A stretch of 64,000 nt of DNA, from assembly GCF_053078305.1 (NCBI RefSeq), contig NZ_CP166879.1. One strand, 5' to 3'. A program made the position numbers and the translations under genes. Under the pieces are notes generated by a model, which ran no database searches, was not told the DNA's origin, and saw nothing but the letters and a program-made list of their open reading frames with translations. Shown here piece after piece: positions 1,797 through 50,529 of the stretch (position 1 is its first letter; each line of letters opens with the position of its first letter).

Positions 1797-2285
1797 TTAC
1801 TTCACCCGCGCCATATAATACGCATCGACATATTCACCATTACGTAATGCGTACTTCTTACCAGTCCCTTCAATTTCAAAGCCGTATTTTTTATAGACCT
1901 TAATTGCTGGCGCGTTATCGACGAACACCGTTAGCTCGATACGAGCTACCCGCAACCAGTTGTCGCACATTTCAATCATCTCTCGCATAAGGGCGCTGGC
2001 GACGCCGCGATTCTTCCAACGGGAGTCGACACAAATACCAAAATCGGCAACATGACTGCGGCGTGGGCGCTGTTGCACGTCAATGGTGAGGTGACCCACG
2101 ACGGTTCCATCAATACAGGCAACTAACTGTTTGATGCCGGGACGATCGGCGAGTCGCTCCTGCCACATATGATCGGAAGGATGAGGCACCTGTAGTGTGT
2201 TGCAATACACCTCCGGCTGGGCGTGAATCTGCCTGATGGCCTCGTAATCGCGCGTTTCAGCATGGCGTATCACTATCTCACTCAT
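1797..2285 (-). CDS. yhhY: GNAT-family N-acetyltransferase
   Basis: Start placed at the internal MSEIVIRHAETRDYEAIRQIHAQPEV (162 aa) rather than the longer 193-aa ORF; GNAT motif RWKNRGVASALM; synteny next to ryhB. Confidence 0.85.
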   Translation of the reverse strand: MSEIVIRHAETRDYEAIRQIHAQPEVYCNTLQVPHPSDHMWQERLADRPGIKQLVACIDGTVVGHLTIDVQQRPRRSHVADFGICVDSRWKNRGVASALMREMIEMCDNWLRVARIELTVFVDNAPAIKVYKKYGFEIEGTGKKYALRNGEYVDAYYMARVK

Positions 2286-2370
2286 TCCTTTGTCCTCTTT
2301 GGGGTAAATGTCCCTTTCAACATCATTGACTTTCGAATGCGAGTCAAATGCATTTTTTTTGCAAAAAGTG

Positions 2371-2407
2371 TTGGACAAGTGCGAATGAGAATGATTATTA
2401 TTGTCTC
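2371..2407 (+). promoter_or_regulatory. ryhB promoter with Fur box (gaatgagaatgattattattg)
   Basis: Fur-box-like AT-rich hexamer repeats directly upstream of the RyhB 5' end, overlapping a -35/-10-like ttgaca...tattat region. Confidence 0.75.
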
Positions 2408-2497
2408 GCGATCAGGAAGACCCTCGCGGAGAACCTGAAAGCACGACATTGCTCACATTGCTTCCAGTATTACTTAGCCAGCCGGGTGCTGGCTTTT
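2408..2497 (+). ncRNA. ryhB: RyhB small RNA (Fur-repressed, iron-sparing regulator)
   Basis: Sequence GCGATCAGGAAGACCCTCGCGGAGAACCTGAAAGCACGACATTGCTCACATTGCTTCCAGTATTACTTAGCCAGCCGGGTGCTGGCTTTT matches RyhB as I remember it, ending in a GC hairpin plus a run of nine T; lies between yhhY and yhhX. Confidence 0.93.
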
Positions 2498-2619
2498 TTT
2501 TTGATCTTTCGTTCTCAATTTATCCTCGGGAAGTGCTTGTGTTCGTTATGCGCACTCCAGTAGGAACCACGTCCGCTTTGCGCTAAGGTGTAAATAACCA
2601 CCTTAAAAAGGACGAAATC

Positions 2620-3657
2620 ATGGTCATCAACTGCGCCTTTATTGGCTTCGGCAAAAGCACCACCCGTTACCATCTGCCGTATGTACTTAACCGCAAGGAT
2701 AGCTGGCATGTCGCGCATATTTTTCGTCGCCATGCGAAGCCGGAAGAACAGGCTCCCATTTACTCTCATATCCATTTCACCAGCGATCTCGACGAAGTGC
2801 TAAACGATCCCGATGTTAAGCTGGTTGTGGTCTGCACCCACGCGGACAGCCATTTCGAGTACGCGAAACGCGCGCTGGAAGCCGGGAAAAATGTGCTGGT
2901 CGAAAAACCGTTCACTCCGACACTTGCGCAGGCGAAAGAGCTGTTTGCACTGGCGAAAAGCAAAGGGCTGACCGTCACGCCATATCAGAATCGTCGCTTT
3001 GATTCCTGCTTCCTGACAGCGAAAAAAGCGATTGAAAGCGGCAAGCTGGGAGAGATTGTCGAAGTGGAAAGCCATTTTGACTATTACCGCCCGGTCGCAG
3101 AAACCAAACCTGGGTTGCCGCAGGATGGCGCGTTCTATGGCCTTGGTGTGCATACGATGGACCAGATTATTTCTCTGTTCGGTCGCCCGGATCACGTCGC
3201 TTATGACATCCGCAGCCTGCGTAATAAAGCCAATCCTGACGATACTTTCGAAGCGCAACTGTTTTATGGCGATCTAAAAGCCATCGTCAAAACCAGCCAT
3301 CTGGTGAAAATCGATTATCCGAAATTTATCGTTCACGGTAAGAAAGGTTCGTTTATTAAATACGGTATCGACCAGCAGGAAACCAGCCTGAAGGCTAATA
3401 TTATGCCGGGCGAACCGGGATTCGCAGCGGATGATTCGGTCGGTGTGCTGGAGTATGTCAATGACGAGGGCGTGACGGTCAGAGAAGAGATGAAGCCGGA
3501 GATGGGCGATTACGGGCGCGTTTATGATGCGTTGTATCAAACCATCACCCACGGTGCGCCAAATTACGTCAAGGAATCTGAAGTTCTTACCAATCTGGAA
3601 ATCCTTGAACGCGGATTTGAGCAAGCCTCTCCCTCCACCGTGACTCTCGCGAAGTAA
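2620..3657 (+). CDS. yhhX: Gfo/Idh/MocA-family NAD(P)-dependent oxidoreductase
   Basis: 345-aa ORF with N-terminal Rossmann motif FIGFGKSTTRYHLP; synteny. Confidence 0.9.
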   Translation: MVINCAFIGFGKSTTRYHLPYVLNRKDSWHVAHIFRRHAKPEEQAPIYSHIHFTSDLDEVLNDPDVKLVVVCTHADSHFEYAKRALEAGKNVLVEKPFTPTLAQAKELFALAKSKGLTVTPYQNRRFDSCFLTAKKAIESGKLGEIVEVESHFDYYRPVAETKPGLPQDGAFYGLGVHTMDQIISLFGRPDHVAYDIRSLRNKANPDDTFEAQLFYGDLKAIVKTSHLVKIDYPKFIVHGKKGSFIKYGIDQQETSLKANIMPGEPGFAADDSVGVLEYVNDEGVTVREEMKPEMGDYGRVYDALYQTITHGAPNYVKESEVLTNLEILERGFEQASPSTVTLAK

Positions 3658-7704: not shown

Positions 7705-7717
7705 TTACTGCGACAAA

Positions 7718-7759
7718 TTACTGCGAGCTTGCTCGCAGTAATTCATTTCTCTTTTCTCC
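7718..7759 (+). terminator. Rho-independent terminator-like hairpin after gntU
   Basis: Arms ttactgcgagc / gctcgcagtaa around a tt centre, followed by the U-rich ttcatttctcttttctcc. Confidence 0.55.
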
Positions 7760-7843
7760 TCTCTTCATCTTTTTGATCTCTCTCGCAAATTTACCTGCAA
7801 ATAATCCGTTCTAATCACTGCCTAAAGATCGCAGGAGATAAAG

Positions 7844-9940
7844 ATGGAAAAGCACGCAGCTGAATTGCTTTTACAGCGGATGTTAGGAAATACCACCGCT
7901 ACTTTCAGGGAAGGGCAATGGGAAGCCATAGACGCGGTGGTGAACCAACGGCGAAAACTGCTGGTTGTCCAACGCACTGGCTGGGGGAAAAGTGCTGTGT
8001 ACTTCATCGCCAGTAAAATCTTCCGCGATCGCGGCGCTGGCCCGACAATTATCATCTCTCCTTTGCTTGCCCAGATGCGTAACCAGGTTGCCGCCGCTGA
8101 ACGGTTAGGTATTACGGCTGAAACGTTGAATTCTACAAACAGGGAAGAATGGCAGCGCATTAGCGATAAGTTGCTGCAAGGTGCGGTCGATTGCTTGCTG
8201 GTTTCCCCGGAACGTTTGGCAAACCAGGACTTTATCGAAACGGTTTTATATCCTATAGCCGATCGTATTGGCTTGCTTGTGGTCGACGAGGCGCACTGCA
8301 TCTCTGATTGGGGCCACGATTTTCGCCCGGATTACCGACGTATATTAGATATTTTGCGCCAACTACCTGCGAATACCCCTGTTCTGGGTACAACCGCGAC
8401 AGCGAATAACCGTGTCGTTGAGGATATCCGTCAGCAATTGGGTGACATTGTGATTCAGCGTGGAACGCTGGCTCGCGAAAGTTTGGCGCTTGATGCCTTA
8501 GTCTTAGGTGAACAGTCATCCCGTCTGGCATGGTTAGCAACGGTTATCCCTCAGTTTTCCAAATCGGGAATTGTTTATACCCTGACTACTCGCGATGCCG
8601 AACTTGTCGCCGAGTGGTTAAGGAAAAATGGTATCAGTGCATTTGCTTACTACAGCGGCGTGACTTGTGAAGGCGCGGAAGATTCTAATACTGCCAGGGA
8701 ATATCTGGAGCAGGCGTTGCTGGCAAATAAAATTAAAGTGCTGGTTGCGACAACGGCGCTGGGAATGGGCTTTGACAAACCGGATTTGGGGTTTGTTATT
8801 CATTACCAGATGCCAGGTTCGATAGTTGGTTACTACCAACAGGTGGGGCGTGCCGGTCGCGGTATCGATTCTGCTGTTGGCATACTGCTTTGCGGCAGTG
8901 AAGACCGTGCTATTCATAAATTCTTCCGTGAAAGCGCCTTTCCTGCGGAGGCGCAAATTCATGAATTACTCAACGTACTTAGCGTGAATGACGGTCTTAC
9001 CTTACGAGGCATTGAACAACGGACGAATCTCCGTTATGGGCAAATAGAAAAAGCACTGAAATTATTGGTAGCTGAAAATCCATCGCCTGTGGTGTATACC
9101 GAGAAATTATGGCGCAGAACAATTGTCAGTTTTTCTCCTGACCATGAACGAATTAACCATTTGATGAATCAGAGAAAAAGTGAGCTGGCAGACGTTGAAA
9201 GCTATATCACGACCAAGGAGTGCAAAATGCAATTTCTGCGCCGCGCACTCGATGAGCCAGGTGCCGAACATTGTGGTAAATGTAGCAGTTGTCTTCAGCA
9301 TCCGTTGTTGTCGCCCGACATTGATAGCGGCTTACTCCATGCGGCAAACTTATTTATTAAACACGCTGACCTGTCATTAAATCTCAATAAACAGGTGGCA
9401 GCTGGGGCTTTTACGCAATACGGATTTAAAGGGAACTTGCCTGCGATTTTACAAGGATCTACGGGGCGAATCCTTTCTCGTTGGGGAGATTCCGGGTGGG
9501 GAAAGCAGGTAGCACAGGAGAAAAAAACGGGGCGATTCAGTGATGAACTGGTGGAGGCATGTGCGGAAATGGTTCGCCAACGCTGGAATCCGCATCCTGA
9601 ACCAACCTGGGTATGCTGCGTTCCTTCATTACAGCACCTCGACCTGGTTCCTGATTTTGCCCGGCGACTGGCGGCGAAACTTGGCTTACCTTTTATTGAT
9701 GCCATTGAAAAAGTCGTGGACAATCCACCGCAGAAAATGCAGCAAAACCGTTTCCACCAGTGTCAAAATCTCGACGGGGCGTTTGTGATTACCCCTCCTT
9801 TGATGCCTGGTCCGGCGTTGCTGGTTGACGATATCGTGGATTCTGCATGGACGCTGACAGTTCTGACAGCACTGTTACGCCAGGCAGGTTGCCCGACGGT
9901 TTATCCTCTTGCCCTTGCTTCTACCTCGGTAAAAAATTGA
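7844..9940 (+). CDS. RecQ-family superfamily-2 DNA helicase with Zn-binding module, fused to a C-terminal ComF/GntX-like phosphoribosyltransferase-fold domain (apparently degenerate)
   Basis: 698 aa. Walker A QRTGWGKS; RecQ-type motif II VVDEAHCISDWGHDFRPDY; later helicase motifs TATA and QQVGRAGRG; four-Cys cluster CKMQ...HCGKCSSC. The last ~150 aa parallel the GntX C-terminus (NLDGAFVI...ALLVDDIVDSAWTLTVLTALLRQAGCPTV vs GntX NLKNAFRL...MVIVDDVVTTGSTVAEIAQLLLRNGAATV). Good SD (gcaggag) 8 nt upstream. I do not recall this gene in K-12. Confidence 0.8.
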   Translation: MEKHAAELLLQRMLGNTTATFREGQWEAIDAVVNQRRKLLVVQRTGWGKSAVYFIASKIFRDRGAGPTIIISPLLAQMRNQVAAAERLGITAETLNSTNREEWQRISDKLLQGAVDCLLVSPERLANQDFIETVLYPIADRIGLLVVDEAHCISDWGHDFRPDYRRILDILRQLPANTPVLGTTATANNRVVEDIRQQLGDIVIQRGTLARESLALDALVLGEQSSRLAWLATVIPQFSKSGIVYTLTTRDAELVAEWLRKNGISAFAYYSGVTCEGAEDSNTAREYLEQALLANKIKVLVATTALGMGFDKPDLGFVIHYQMPGSIVGYYQQVGRAGRGIDSAVGILLCGSEDRAIHKFFRESAFPAEAQIHELLNVLSVNDGLTLRGIEQRTNLRYGQIEKALKLLVAENPSPVVYTEKLWRRTIVSFSPDHERINHLMNQRKSELADVESYITTKECKMQFLRRALDEPGAEHCGKCSSCLQHPLLSPDIDSGLLHAANLFIKHADLSLNLNKQVAAGAFTQYGFKGNLPAILQGSTGRILSRWGDSGWGKQVAQEKKTGRFSDELVEACAEMVRQRWNPHPEPTWVCCVPSLQHLDLVPDFARRLAAKLGLPFIDAIEKVVDNPPQKMQQNRFHQCQNLDGAFVITPPLMPGPALLVDDIVDSAWTLTVLTALLRQAGCPTVYPLALASTSVKN

Positions 9941-11142
9941 TGAATCTTTCAGCCAATGCACAAGCAACTCTCCTGCTAACCAGCGATTTTTCTCGCGCGG
10001 CGGCGAGTGAGTATAAACCTCTTAGTAATAGTGAATGGGGGAAGTTTGCATTATGGCTGAAGCACCAACGTATCAGTCCCGCCGAGCTTCTGGTGCCGCA
10101 ACCGCAAGAGAAACTTACAGGCTGGAGCGATCCGCGTATTTCTCAGGAGCGTATTCTTGGCTTGCTGGCGCGTGGTCATAGTCTGGCGTTGGCGGTAGAT
10201 AAGTGGCAACGCGCCGGTTTATGGATCTTAACCCGCGGAGATGCTGATTATCCCGTTCGCTTGAAAAACCGATTGCGAACGGATGCACCTCCCGTTTTAT
10301 TTGGCTGCGGGAATAAAGCATTACTGCAAGCGGAAGGTATGGCGATTGTTGGCTCGCGAGATGCTCCGACTGACGATTTGCGCTATACCCAACAACTGGC
10401 CGCGAAACTGGCCCAACAGGGGATTTGCGTTATCTCTGGTGGTGCGCGAGGTATTGATGAATGTGCAATGGCGTCGGTACTGGAGGCCGGGGGAACTGCC
10501 GTTGGCGTATTAGCTGATAGCTTGTTAAAAACGAGTACGTTAGTGAAATGGCGTGAAGGGCTTATAGCAGGCAACCTGGTGTTGATTTCGCCGTTTTACC
10601 CAGAGGTACGTTTCACCGTCGGCAATGCGATGGCGCGAAATAAATATATTTATTGCCTTGCTGAAAGCGCAATGGTTGTACGTGCGGGAATGACCGGTGG
10701 AACGATAACCGGGGCGATGGAGGCATTAAAACATCAGTGGCTGCCTGTGCAGGTTAAACCAAATCAGGATATGCAATCAGCCAATTCACGATTAGTAGAA
10801 AATGGGGCGTCATGGAGTGCTGAACAGGCTGAGAATGTGACGATCAGACTGCCAGACGTTCCTGGGCTGATGTATGACAGAGCACTCCGTAACGCTCAAC
10901 CAGAACTGTTTTCGCTGCATGAAGATGACGCAAATTACGCAGTAATGCCCGCGTATACGCCTGTCGATTTTTATCAACTCTTTGTGGCGGAACTGGCGAT
11001 CCTTGCAAAGGAATCGATAAGTATTGAAAGGCTGGCGTCTTGTACTGGTTTAACCATCGAACAAATTAGTGTGTGGCTGAACCGCGCAGAAGAAGAGGGA
11101 AGGGTTATCCGATTGGGCGAAGGTCATTATCAGTTCAGGTAA
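9940..11142 (+). CDS. DprA/Smf-like (SLOG-superfamily Rossmann) DNA-processing protein with N- and C-terminal extensions
   Basis: Start taken at the ATG overlapping the helicase stop by 1 nt (ttgATGaat), not the upstream in-frame ATG of the ORF track. DprA core motifs MAIVGSRDAPTD, ISGGARGIDECAMASVLEAGG, ISPFYPEVRF, ARNKYIYCLAESAMVV. About 90-aa C-terminal tail, possibly a winged helix. Confidence 0.8.
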   Translation: MNLSANAQATLLLTSDFSRAAASEYKPLSNSEWGKFALWLKHQRISPAELLVPQPQEKLTGWSDPRISQERILGLLARGHSLALAVDKWQRAGLWILTRGDADYPVRLKNRLRTDAPPVLFGCGNKALLQAEGMAIVGSRDAPTDDLRYTQQLAAKLAQQGICVISGGARGIDECAMASVLEAGGTAVGVLADSLLKTSTLVKWREGLIAGNLVLISPFYPEVRFTVGNAMARNKYIYCLAESAMVVRAGMTGGTITGAMEALKHQWLPVQVKPNQDMQSANSRLVENGASWSAEQAENVTIRLPDVPGLMYDRALRNAQPELFSLHEDDANYAVMPAYTPVDFYQLFVAELAILAKESISIERLASCTGLTIEQISVWLNRAEEEGRVIRLGEGHYQFR

Positions 11143-11145
11143 TAA

Positions 11146-11181
11146 AACAGGTGCCGCGTCTGGTTGTGTGCAGCACCTGTT
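11146..11181. terminator. Imperfect inverted repeat (acaggtgc...gcacctgt) between the convergent DprA-like gene and yhgN
   Basis: Complementary arms about 8 bp each, seen in the sequence; no strong U-tract. Confidence 0.35.
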
Positions 11182-11187
11182 TGAACC

Positions 11188-22833: not shown

Positions 22834-24351
22834 ATGGACAGAATGATGCCAAATAGAAAATGGATTTTGACCTCGCTGATAATGACTTTTTTCGGCATCC
22901 CCATACTGGCGCAATTTTTGGCAGCGGTTGTTGCCATGCTGGGTGTCGGGCTTACCGGTATTATTGAAGTTTGTAATATCCTTATCACGCCAACAATTTA
23001 TCTTCTACTCAACGTCTTTATGCTGACGCTGGGGGCGATAATAATATTTTTCTCTGGTCGCGTGTGGGCCGGTGATAGCGCGCCAGAAAACAGAGAAATA
23101 GCCGTCTGGCGGCAATGCTTTTTTCTCTTACCCGCGCTATTAACCCTGGTTGGCTGGATAATCACGCTACATCTGGCAGATTATCAATTTCGCCAGATGG
23201 GAGCTGGTTGGTTGGCAAACCTTATGCTTCCCTGGTTGGGCGTTTTTTTAGTCTCATTAGTGGGTGGTGAGTACTGGTGGATGGTCATTATTCCCGTTGG
23301 GGTGCATATCAGTTTTTCGCTGGGATACGCCTGGCCGACCAGATATCCTTTATCCGGCACGTCCGGACTACGTTGCCGTAACTTACTCCTGTTTCTACTT
23401 CTCTTACTTGGTATTGTCGCCGGGTATCAGGCCCATTTATATAAGCAGCAAAATCCTGGTGTCGGTGTACGCGAAAATATTGATATCTGGGCCTGGCGAC
23501 CCGATAAACTCAATAATCGACTGACGCCGCTGCGTGGCAAACCGCAAATTCAGTTTAGGCAAAACTGGCCGCGAATCGATGGCGCCACGGCTGCGTACCC
23601 AATTTATGCTTCTGCATTTTATGCATTAAGTGTAATACCAGAGGATTTTCACGTTTGGGATTATCTGGAAAACTCTCGTACGCCAGAAGCATATAACAAA
23701 ATCGTTAAGGGCGATGCTGATATTATTTTCGTGGCGCAACCTTCCGGTGGGCAAAAAAAACGTGCAAAGGAATCTGGTGTCACTTTGCTGTACACCCCCT
23801 TTGCCCGTGAAGCATTCGTTTTCATCGTCAATGCGGATAATCCGGTTAATTCCCTGACTGAACAACAGGTGCGTGACATTTTCAGTGGTGCAATTACCAA
23901 CTGGCGTACTTTTGGCGGTAACGATCAGGAGATCCAGACCTGGCAGCGCCCGGAAGACTCTGGCAGCCAGACAGTGATGCAATCACAGGTCATGAAAAAT
24001 GTCCGCATGATCTCGCCGCAGGAAACGGAAGTGGCAAGCGTGATGGAGGGAATGATTAAAGTCGTTGCCGAATACCGTAATACAAACAACGCAATAGGCT
24101 ATACCTTCCGCTATTACGCGACGCAAATGAATGCTGATAAAAATATAAAATTGCTAGCGATTAACGGTATTACACCGACGGCGGAAAACATTCGCAACGG
24201 CAAATATGCGTACATCGTCGATGCATTTATGGTGACGAGAGAAAATAAAACGTCAGAAACACAAAAACTGGTCGAATGGTTTTTAACGCCGCAGGGGCAG
24301 AGTCTGGTAGAAGATGTGGGATATGTGCCGCTGTATAAAATCTTACCTTAA
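22834..24351 (+). CDS. Membrane-anchored protein: N-terminal polytopic domain (~6 predicted TM helices) plus C-terminal periplasmic solute-binding-protein-like domain (PBP superfamily, possibly phosphate/oxyanion type)
   Basis: 505-aa ORF. First ~200 aa hydrophobic; C-terminal part has SBP-like segments (DGATAAYPIYASAFY, FVAQPSGGQ, LLAINGITPTAENIRNGKYAY). K-12 carries only a pseudogene (yzgL) at this position as far as I recall. SBP subfamily is a guess. Confidence 0.6.
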   Translation: MDRMMPNRKWILTSLIMTFFGIPILAQFLAAVVAMLGVGLTGIIEVCNILITPTIYLLLNVFMLTLGAIIIFFSGRVWAGDSAPENREIAVWRQCFFLLPALLTLVGWIITLHLADYQFRQMGAGWLANLMLPWLGVFLVSLVGGEYWWMVIIPVGVHISFSLGYAWPTRYPLSGTSGLRCRNLLLFLLLLLGIVAGYQAHLYKQQNPGVGVRENIDIWAWRPDKLNNRLTPLRGKPQIQFRQNWPRIDGATAAYPIYASAFYALSVIPEDFHVWDYLENSRTPEAYNKIVKGDADIIFVAQPSGGQKKRAKESGVTLLYTPFAREAFVFIVNADNPVNSLTEQQVRDIFSGAITNWRTFGGNDQEIQTWQRPEDSGSQTVMQSQVMKNVRMISPQETEVASVMEGMIKVVAEYRNTNNAIGYTFRYYATQMNADKNIKLLAINGITPTAENIRNGKYAYIVDAFMVTRENKTSETQKLVEWFLTPQGQSLVEDVGYVPLYKILP

Positions 24352-24453
24352 GCAGGATAATCATATGGATACCGGTATTATTCGCCTGAACGCGGCCAAT
24401 GCTCGTTTTGTTTATCAACCGTTTACACGCAATCAGCGGAAGAGGGAGTAATT

Positions 24454-25230
24454 ATGCAATGCAGCCCCGCCATGCAGGCATTAATTGAGCAGATTTATCA
24501 TATTTTTCGTCGTTATCCGGTGCCGTCGAGATTTCATGTTTGTTGTCCTTACTGCTTTAGCGAAGAACAACAACAAGCCTTAAGAGGGGTTTCACTGCGT
24601 GCCATACCTTTCCCTTTATTACATGCCTGGGGAACAAGTATTGGTCCTACCCCGCAAAATGATGATGAGATTCGCTATTTATTACCCAGATTGTTTGAAT
24701 TTATTTCCCAAAGGCAATTTCCAGGCATTTATGAAGGCTGCTGTTTACAGAGAATAGCAGAGGCAGATAACCAGAACTGGCGAACGGACGAACTACAAAT
24801 AATTAGCGATTTCGCCTATTTATATATGCAGGATTGGGTGTCGGCTAAGGAGGTCGTAGAACTGGAAATAATATTAGAAATGTTTTATCGCGGTGGTATA
24901 AAGATTGAACCCTTACTTGACGCCATTATGTCCATTTCCGGTTACTGGCCGACGGCGTCTATGGCATGTTTGCTCTGGCGTAACAGTAAAGAATACGTCG
25001 AAAATAGCGATTTTGAGCAGAGTGATGATAATAAAACTATTACCACTCAAATTAATACCTGGGCTAGAAATAATCATCCTTTTCTGAAAGAAAGAGCGCG
25101 ACAAGCGATTGAGAACCCACTAAAACAGCCTGAACCAATGACAGAATATCAAGTCTGGGAAGACGACTGGATGATTGATGAGTGTTTATGCGCGATGTAT
25201 GACGCATCACCCGAACAATCAGGACAATAA
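24454..25230 (+). CDS. Hypothetical soluble protein, Cys-containing N-terminus (CCPYC); no family recognised
   Basis: 258-aa ORF, AT-richer than flanking core genes; its stop is 2 nt before the next ORF's start. Confidence 0.5.
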   Translation: MQCSPAMQALIEQIYHIFRRYPVPSRFHVCCPYCFSEEQQQALRGVSLRAIPFPLLHAWGTSIGPTPQNDDEIRYLLPRLFEFISQRQFPGIYEGCCLQRIAEADNQNWRTDELQIISDFAYLYMQDWVSAKEVVELEIILEMFYRGGIKIEPLLDAIMSISGYWPTASMACLLWRNSKEYVENSDFEQSDDNKTITTQINTWARNNHPFLKERARQAIENPLKQPEPMTEYQVWEDDWMIDECLCAMYDASPEQSGQ

Positions 25231-25232
25231 AG

Positions 25233-25823
25233 ATGAATAAAATCAGACTTTATATTTATCCGCTATATCTCGGCTTTGTTATTGTGCCGTTGTTGGTGTG
25301 GCCGACGGTGGTTGTTGTTGGTATCACACTGAGTTTTCTAATGGAGATGCTGTTCTCAAATTCGTTCATGCACAGGCGTATTTCCCTTCTGGAATTACAA
25401 CTTGGGTTATTGGCTGAATATACGCTTTTGTTCTGCGCCATATGTTGCGTTGGTTGGCAATTTGCTCGCATAACTCAATCTGAATTGAAAAGCAAACTGC
25501 ATTATTGGCTGGTATTTGTACCAGTTTATTTCTGGTTGCTCCTGTGGAATATCATTTTCTATGTCGCGCCAGCGAAAATTGCATTGCTGGAAAATATGCG
25601 CAGTTTCTTTCTGACCGTTGTCTGGCTCCCACTGAATTTTTCGCCATTTTGGTCTCAACCGTGGATTGACTTTGTCGGTCCAATAAGCGCACAGCTTGGT
25701 TTTGCGTTGGGATATTATTGCCAGTGGCGTAGCAAAAATAGAAGCCAGAGGAAGAAGTGGGGCGAGTGGGTAATGTGCTTAAGTTTTGTTACGTTGGGTA
25801 TGATGGCGTGGGCTTTGCGGTAA
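25233..25823 (+). CDS. Hypothetical integral membrane protein (4-5 predicted TM helices)
   Basis: 196-aa hydrophobic ORF tightly coupled to the preceding ORF; AT-rich. Confidence 0.5.
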   Translation: MNKIRLYIYPLYLGFVIVPLLVWPTVVVVGITLSFLMEMLFSNSFMHRRISLLELQLGLLAEYTLLFCAICCVGWQFARITQSELKSKLHYWLVFVPVYFWLLLWNIIFYVAPAKIALLENMRSFFLTVVWLPLNFSPFWSQPWIDFVGPISAQLGFALGYYCQWRSKNRSQRKKWGEWVMCLSFVTLGMMAWALR

Positions 25824-25876: not shown

Positions 25877-25975
25877 GCCTGATGCGGCGTGAACGCCTTA
25901 TCAGGCCTACAAAATCATGCAAATTCAACATATTGCATAAACCACGTAGGCCTGATAAGCGTAGCGCATCAGGCA
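25877..25975. repeat. BIME: two inverted REP sequences (gcctgatgcggcgtgaacgccttatcaggcctac ... gtaggcctgataagcgtagcgcatcaggca)
   Basis: Canonical enterobacterial REP consensus (GATGCGGCG ... GGCCTAC) read directly; intergenic, downstream of glpD. Confidence 0.85.
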
Positions 25976-32702: not shown

Positions 32703-33734
<1,032 letters not shown>

Positions 33735-33783
33735 AATCCCTCCCGGATCAGACTCATCAGTGTGACTATCCGGTAGAGGTAAA

Positions 33784-34269
33784 TTACTCCAGAGTAATGA
33801 GATACAGTAAGGTAAGTGACTGGAATGGTGAAGGTACAAAGGCATACTTCAGATAGAAATTGCGTACTGAATCGTCTAAGGCATGAACAATAAGCGCACG
33901 AACCCCTACCTGTTGAGCTATGGACATTGTGCGATAGACTGCATCTTTCAACAATGCGACGCCCAACCCTTTACCTGCCCAGGCTTGATCAATTGCCAGT
34001 CTGCCTAATACGACAACAGGCAACGATTCGGGAGCATTACGTCGCATGGCTCCAGGGGCCAAATTACGTTGAATACTGCCTGTAGAAAGGCAGTAATAGC
34101 CGATTACCTGGCGGGTATTGGCAATACAGATAACGTAAACACGAGACAGACCGGAGCTGTGATTTTTTAATGCTTTCTTTTTTAGCCATTCATTCATCCC
34201 GTGATCGGAACAGCAAAAGTCAGCCAGATTATGTTCAGACGTTAGGGGAGTAGGAGCCGTTATTCCCAT
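33784..34269 (-). CDS. GNAT-family acetyltransferase toxin (TacT/AtaT/ItaT/KacT-like; predicted aminoacyl-tRNA acetylating toxin)
   Basis: 161 aa; acetyl-CoA binding motif QAWAGKGLGVALL; start codon lies inside the last codons of the upstream DUF1778 ORF. I do not recall this pair in K-12. Confidence 0.75.
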   Translation of the reverse strand: MGITAPTPLTSEHNLADFCCSDHGMNEWLKKKALKNHSSGLSRVYVICIANTRQVIGYYCLSTGSIQRNLAPGAMRRNAPESLPVVVLGRLAIDQAWAGKGLGVALLKDAVYRTMSIAQQVGVRALIVHALDDSVRNFYLKYAFVPSPFQSLTLLYLITLE

Positions 34270-34544
34270 GGCGATTTACGATTCATCAACGCGTTAATTT
34301 TGGCCTGACGCTCAGCAGTGATGGGGGCGTCCAGGGCAGCCAGAAACGCATCGTATTGCTCGTCATCAAGGATGAATAGTCGTTGATCTAATAAGATGTC
34401 TTGCGCTTCACGGCATGCGGCATCCAGCATAAAATCAGTGCGCGATTTTGCGACCAGATTCGCTGCCATATCAATCAGGTCACGCTGTGAGGCTTTCGCT
34501 CTGATATTGATTGGCGCTTCTTTGCTTTCCGGTTTCATATTCAT
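34260..34544 (-). CDS. DUF1778-type (ribbon-helix-helix) antitoxin partnered with the GNAT toxin
   Basis: 94 aa; INIRAKASQRDLIDMAANLVAKSRTDFMLDAA is the typical DUF1778 N-terminus; upstream of and overlapping the toxin ORF by 10 nt. Confidence 0.75.
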   Translation of the reverse strand: MNMKPESKEAPINIRAKASQRDLIDMAANLVAKSRTDFMLDAACREAQDILLDQRLFILDDEQYDAFLAALDAPITAERQAKINALMNRKSPWE

Positions 34545-34604
34545 GAGCCTGTAGTGCGATTTTATATACAGTATAAAGAGTGTACATAAAAACGCTATAC
34601 AAAC

Positions 34605-42421: not shown

Positions 42422-42442
42422 GCCGGATGCGATGCATCCGGC
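42422..42442. terminator. Palindrome gccggatgcgatgcatccggc between convergent malQ and gntT (bidirectional terminator / REP-like)
   Basis: Perfect 9-bp arms, seen in the sequence. Confidence 0.55.
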
Positions 42443-50269: not shown

Positions 50270-50295
50270 CAGTACAATGATAATGAGAATGGTTT
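50270..50295. promoter_or_regulatory. Candidate Fur box upstream of feoA (aatgataatgagaatgg)
   Basis: Matches the Fur GATAAT hexamer pattern; ~110 bp upstream of the feoA ATG, so its role is uncertain. Confidence 0.4.
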
Positions 50296-50529
50296 CTATC
50301 AGCAATACTTAAAATGTGTGCGAATGTTGGTTTGAATAATAATCTGACTCAATGTTGATGTGGCTCAAGGTTATATCGCAGCGAAAATATAATTCGAATA
50401 GCGAATTACCAGGACTGGCTAATGTTTAATTAAGGTTTCAGTTGTTAATGAAGTGATAAATATTAACGAAATATATTGTGAGTTTGGCTGTGGAATAAAT
50501 ATGCCGGAGATATTCTCCGGCACTTTTAT

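Follow-up and report, generated by a model that had tools for sequence, protein, structure and literature searches.

The DNA between yhhY and yhhX in the stretch analyzed here (64,000 nucleotides, referred to below as the window) carries, at 2408-2502 on the plus strand, what is almost certainly the chromosomal ryhB gene of a non-K-12 E. coli, whose sequence predicts a Fur-repressed, iron-sparing sRNA. In the alignment with MG1655, its promoter and full RNA match ryhB (b4451) at 100% identity, and none of the evidence collected contradicts this identification. The feature is already known, and this copy holds nothing new, its promoter and RNA being the same as in the K-12 reference; the original prediction had also called it a known feature, and the sequence agrees letter for letter. 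RyhB is said to have been first characterized by Masse and Gottesman in 2002.

Identification of the ryhB gene

MG1655 has ryhB annotated as a minus-strand ncRNA flanked by yhhX and yhhY (NC_000913.3, 3580922..3581016). Mapping this annotation by alignment placed the 5' end at 2408 and the 3' end at 2502, which gives an RNA of 95 nt; the classical form of 90 nt, which has four U at its end, stops at 2497. The whole window was scanned against 4227 Rfam families at curated thresholds, and RyhB (RF00057) was one of the two matches, located at 2437-2501 (+) with 83.1 bits against a gathering score of 55, an E value of 3.6e-14, and coverage of the complete model (1-67/67). The RyhB sRNA had been proposed from the letters, with this covariance-model search as the suggested check, and the claim is borne out by the family score together with the identity to K-12 ryhB. 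The stretch 2371-2497 reads TTGGACA (-35), the A/T-rich run GCGAATGAGAATGATTATTATTGTC, and then GCGATCAGGAAGACC...GCTGGCTTTT. The invariant core GCACGACAUUGCUCACAUUGCUUCCAG, a feature of RyhB membership that is used for target pairing, is present at 2441-2467.

The same two results bear on whether the match could be a chance resemblance or a decayed, non-functional relic of RyhB. We give this reading practically no weight: the E value is very small, and the sequence is identical to a functional gene including its promoter and terminator, so the family-model score and the K-12 identity refute it.

Mechanical open reading frames overlap the gene at 2348..2563 (+, 71 aa), 2401..2586 (+, 61 aa), and 2282..2449 (-, 55 aa), and one RefSeq genome (H12) has a "hypothetical protein" call under the ryhB match, which would fit a small protein encoded here. 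However, these frames cross the promoter, the Fur box, and the terminator, the 90-nt RNA contains no AUG, conservation tracks the RNA unit and no reading frame, and the MG1655 annotation at the locus is ncRNA only. A coding function is therefore highly improbable, and we excluded it on the grounds that the frames run through regulatory elements and that the RNA lacks an AUG. The gene had been described as invisible to an ORF track, which holds for the eight listed RefSeq records that have no feature under the match; the strain with the "hypothetical protein" call is the one departure.

Fold prediction places a 5' stem-loop (GCGA...UCGC) at 2408-2427 (+), outside the Rfam model. The predicted fold of the RNA is not more stable than that of shuffled sequences (z = -0.67), and fold stability was set aside as evidence because it does not distinguish the RNA from the shuffles. 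Such a lack of extra stability is common among sRNAs whose pairing region is open.

Promoter and Fur boxes

A consensus scan of 2200-2700 found a sigma-70 promoter on the plus strand with the -35 hexamer TGGACA at 2372-2377 and the -10 hexamer TATTAT at 2396-2401, separated by an 18-nt spacer and with 10 of their 12 bases agreeing with the consensus; 6 nt separate the -10 hexamer from the 5' end at 2408. The scan returned no second sigma-70-like promoter in this interval.

Every 19-mer of the window was scored on both strands against the Fur-box consensus GATAATGATAATCATTATC. The top score in the 64-kb window belongs to GAGAATGATTATTATTGTC at 2387-2405, which matches at 16/19 positions and lies over the -10 hexamer; it is the sole match in the window with at most 3 mismatches, of which shuffled sequences contain 0.01 on average. 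The Fur box that the original prediction had placed at this promoter is therefore well supported. A second match, GCGAATGAGAATGATTATT (14/19), lies 6 bp upstream at 2381-2399, and the two boxes show the hexamer-phased overlap typical of Fur sites. Matches of at least 14/19 outside the ryhB promoter amount to about 2 per 64 kb (window, both strands). Chen et al. (2007, PMC2189734) described the K-12 ryhB Fur site as lying at about -15, with 25.2 bits and an overlap with two weaker sites, and verified it by gel shift; its published sequence is identical to that of the main box in the window. From this published work and the identical sequence, Fur would be expected to bind here and to make expression iron dependent.

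Another Fur-box-like cluster, with two overlapping 13/19 matches 6 bp apart (GATAGAAACCATTCTCATTATCATTGTA), was observed at 50273-50301 in the minus-strand sense. The feoA start (50165) is about 108-136 nt downstream of this cluster, whose position fits a Fur-regulated feoABC promoter.

Terminator and probable Hfq module

A terminator scan of 2200-2700 found one Rho-independent terminator, at 2476-2502 (+), composed of a stem of 7 pairs (AGCCAGC/GCTGGCT, 2476-2494; 5 G-C) followed by nine T (2494-2502). Covariation in this helix was evaluated by aligning 79 distinct homologues that carry a terminator. The homologues had been gathered by the exact 22-mer of the core, which makes the central-hairpin columns invariant by construction, and the terminator helix alone is informative. 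In this helix, 96% of the cells were paired, and changes on both sides were found at 4 of the 7 pairs; one pair changed from A-U to C-G in 17 sequences and to G-C in 6. When the 3' partners were slid by 1-3 columns, pairing over the whole tested structure fell from 97% to 28-45%.

In published work, the ryhB terminator with its U-tail is the module to which Hfq binds, read-through forms with a 3' extension lose Hfq binding, and iron depletion enhances termination (PMC4509938). The same dependence on Hfq would be expected of the RNA encoded in the window.

Conservation of the RNA unit

The 132-bp unit of promoter and RNA (2371-2502) was matched in 5424 of 5426 complete E. coli genomes, in 5413 of them at 99% identity or above. 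The 334-bp yhhY-yhhX intergenic region was found in the same number of genomes (5424/5426), always on the chromosome and with a median of one copy, and reached at least 99% identity in 1677. The difference between 5413 and 1677 genomes at this level indicates that the RNA and its promoter are more tightly constrained than their surroundings. In a few E. coli genomes, up to three places match the ryhB region.

For comparison across genera, the exact 22-nt core (2446-2467) was searched with one genome per species, and it was present in at least 120 loci, distributed over Enterobacterales, Vibrionaceae, and Aeromonadaceae. The matches listed include Escherichia albertii, Citrobacter, Enterobacter, Klebsiella, Yersinia, Serratia, Photorhabdus, Xenorhabdus, Pantoea, Erwinia, Dickeya, Morganella, Providencia, Vibrio, Aliivibrio, Salinivibrio, and Aeromonas. 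A Fur box of at least 14/19 lies within 100 nt upstream of the core in 102 of the 116 listed loci with enough flank. Among the non-E. coli matches listed, genomes with two loci carrying the exact core were frequent. The Vibrio copies among the matches listed have no terminator nearby, which suggests that they are longer RNAs.

Possible read-through toward yhhX

The divergent upstream neighbor is yhhY (1797..2285, -), a GNAT N-acetyltransferase with a Pfam Acetyltransf_1 match, and the downstream neighbor is yhhX (2620..3657, +), a GFO/IDH/MocA oxidoreductase by Pfam and annotation. Open reading frames, Pfam matches, and MG1655 synteny agree on this arrangement, and the predicted location between the two genes was correct.

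Since yhhX is on the same strand as ryhB and begins 117 bp past the terminator, the element might be mainly a Fur-regulated promoter and leader of yhhX, with the "sRNA" as an attenuated 5' product and an iron-regulated ryhB-yhhX mRNA arising by read-through. The simple promoter scan described above, which left 2200-2700 without another sigma-70-like promoter, is in line with this, as is the original assignment of the Fur site to yhhX by Vassinova and Kozyrev, taken here as it is cited in PMC2189734. Frequent read-through of the ryhB terminator was also reported by Morita et al. (2015), for whom co-transcription of yhhX is likely but unproven (PMC4509938). However, the core, the Fur box, and the terminator recur in many genera, which suggests independent conservation of the RNA, and the enhanced termination under iron depletion occurs when the promoter is on. 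A role in yhhX expression would moreover add to the function of the sRNA and would not replace it. We consider it doubtful that the element is mainly a leader of yhhX, and the gene at 2408-2502 is best described as ryhB.

It is possible, although we put this forward only tentatively, that yhhX is transcribed mainly from the Fur-controlled ryhB promoter, by read-through of the terminator; if true, the yhhX oxidoreductase would join the iron-starvation response. The spacer at 2503-2619 (+) contains a predicted hairpin (AAGGUGU...ACCACCUU) that immediately precedes the yhhX ribosome-binding site, and it holds two of the four intergenic differences from K-12. Compared with shuffled sequences, its fold is not compelling (z = -1.65). 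The 117-nt spacer, with its predicted fold around the ribosome-binding site, might tune yhhX expression.

Proposed target pairing and mode of action

The hybridizing region of RyhB was reported as nt 28-68 (Wang et al. 2015, PMC4666370), which corresponds to 2435-2475 (+) in the window and contains the 22-mer at 2446-2467 as well as the nonamer GACAUUGCU at 2445-2453 (RyhB nt 38-46). This nonamer is a perfect 9-bp complement of MG1655 sodB from -4 to +5, spanning the AUG. The predicted duplex energy between the RyhB core and sodB gives a modest advantage, with 58 of 1000 shuffled cores performing as well, and prediction with the whole RyhB molecule gave an end-to-end duplex, which carries no information on the pairing site. 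Because the duplex energy beats the shuffles only moderately, the sodB case rests on the exact complementarity and on the literature. Judged by this pairing, the complementarity corresponds to the published mode of action, in which the start region of the mRNA would be occluded. Acting through Hfq and RNase E, RyhB lowers both the translation and the stability of many iron-protein mRNAs (PMC4666370), and target decay would be expected for this copy on the same basis.

The proposed sequence of events is as follows. Under iron sufficiency, Fe2+-Fur would occupy the overlapping boxes at 2381-2405, and RNA polymerase would be blocked because the -10 hexamer is covered. Under iron scarcity, Fur would leave the site, and the sigma-70 promoter would fire from 2408, with transcription stopping at the intrinsic terminator (2476-2502) to give an RNA of about 90 nt. 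Hfq would be bound by the terminator hairpin and U-tail and by the AU-rich stretch preceding the hairpin. The single-stranded conserved core (about 2435-2475) would then pair with mRNAs that encode non-essential iron proteins, for example sodB, sdhCDAB, acnB, and ftnA, at the regions where their translation is initiated. Such pairing would block ribosome binding and lead to RNase E-dependent decay of both RyhB and the target, and iron would be spared for essential uses.

Comparison with K-12 RyhB, RyhB paralogues, and PrrF

The window and K-12 RyhB (b4451; RF00057) have the same promoter, Fur boxes, RNA, terminator, and yhhY/yhhX neighbors. The intergenic region at 2287-2620 is 99% identical to the reverse complement of the K-12 sequence, and its four differences are all outside the promoter and RNA unit: a G/A substitution and an added T precede the -35 hexamer, and a T/A substitution and an added A lie between the terminator and yhhX.

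Paralogue pairs such as RyhB-1/RyhB-2 of Salmonella (RfrA/RfrB) share with the window copy the 22-nt core, a Fur box upstream of it, and a terminator that ends in a U-tail. The second-copy type found in other Enterobacterales differs in having a GCCCGC/GCGGGC terminator, another 5' part, and a Fur box of the GATAAAGATTATCTTTCTC type, whereas ryhB of the window is of the canonical GCCAGC type.

PrrF1 and PrrF2 of Pseudomonas (RF00444) are functional analogues, being Fur-repressed, iron-sparing sRNAs with a terminator. A permissive Rfam scan of 2200-2700 again returned RyhB, and PrrF was the only addition, below threshold at 21.3 bits against a gathering score of 90 (E = 0.27). At the level of family models, we judge ryhB of the window and PrrF not to be homologous.

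The yhhZ block and its boundary

The original prediction had placed ryhB at the edge of the AT-rich yhhZ accessory block. Positions 1-1800 have a GC content of 30-36%, which rises to about 50% beyond 1800, with 34.6% in the yhhZ CDS (382-1560, -), 28% in the yhhZ-yhhY spacer, and 51% in the yhhY CDS (1797-2285, -). Of 5426 E. coli genomes, only 3823 contain the block at 1-1796, which identifies it as accessory DNA. Homology to DSM 103246, which has other genes in place of the block, begins exactly at 1797, the end of yhhY, and yhhY is present in a strain without yhhZ. With the boundary of the variable block at 1796/1797, ryhB belongs to the conserved DNA and is separated from the block by one gene (about 575-610 bp). 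The low-GC accessory block was described correctly, but ryhB is not at its edge, since yhhY intervenes.

The genes that replace the block in DSM 103246 include a DUF4225 gene. The yhhZ product, an Hcp-effector fusion, joins an N-terminal Hcp/TssD domain to a long C-terminal extension; yrhA (1-381) is located downstream of yhhZ.

Other differences between the window and K-12

Several segments elsewhere in the window also differ from K-12. About 3.5 kb between gntU and yhgN (7705-11187) is absent from K-12 and includes an ORF at 7844..9940 (+, 698 aa) for a RecQ-family helicase (PADLOC PsyrT, 1056 bits) and an ORF at 9847..11142 (+, 431 aa) for a DprA/SLOG-like protein (PADLOC PsyrA, 669 bits). 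These matches identify the two as a PsyrTA (RqlHI) toxin-antitoxin/anti-phage defense pair.

Between glgP and glpD, about 2.7 kb (23069-25758) is absent from K-12, which has only a yzgL remnant there. The ORF at 22834..24351 (+) encodes 505 aa with a PstS-like (PBP_like_2) C-terminal half, and the ORFs at 24454..25230 (258 aa) and 25233..25823 (196 aa), both on the plus strand, had no match in Pfam, NCBIfam, or PADLOC. Just past this insertion on the glpD side, intergenic DNA at 25911-25953 (+) gave a marginal Rfam match to the ES036/CssrF sRNA (39.3 bits against a gathering score of 37.6).

A further segment of about 0.9 kb between rtcA and malT (33712-34600) is absent from K-12. It carries an ORF at 34260..34544 (-) for a TacA1-family antitoxin of 94 aa (Pfam, 70.8 bits), followed by an ORF at 33784..34269 (-) for a weakly GNAT-like protein of 161 aa, and together they look like a TacAT-type type II toxin-antitoxin module. 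At 42434, the malQ-gntT intergenic region is 65 bp shorter than in K-12; this difference may reflect the presence or absence of a REP-type element.

Significance for annotation

The listed RefSeq records leave ryhB unannotated, and its recovery from the raw sequence therefore indicates that the scan works correctly. ryhB is a master post-transcriptional regulator of iron use, and the copy described here matters for annotation only.
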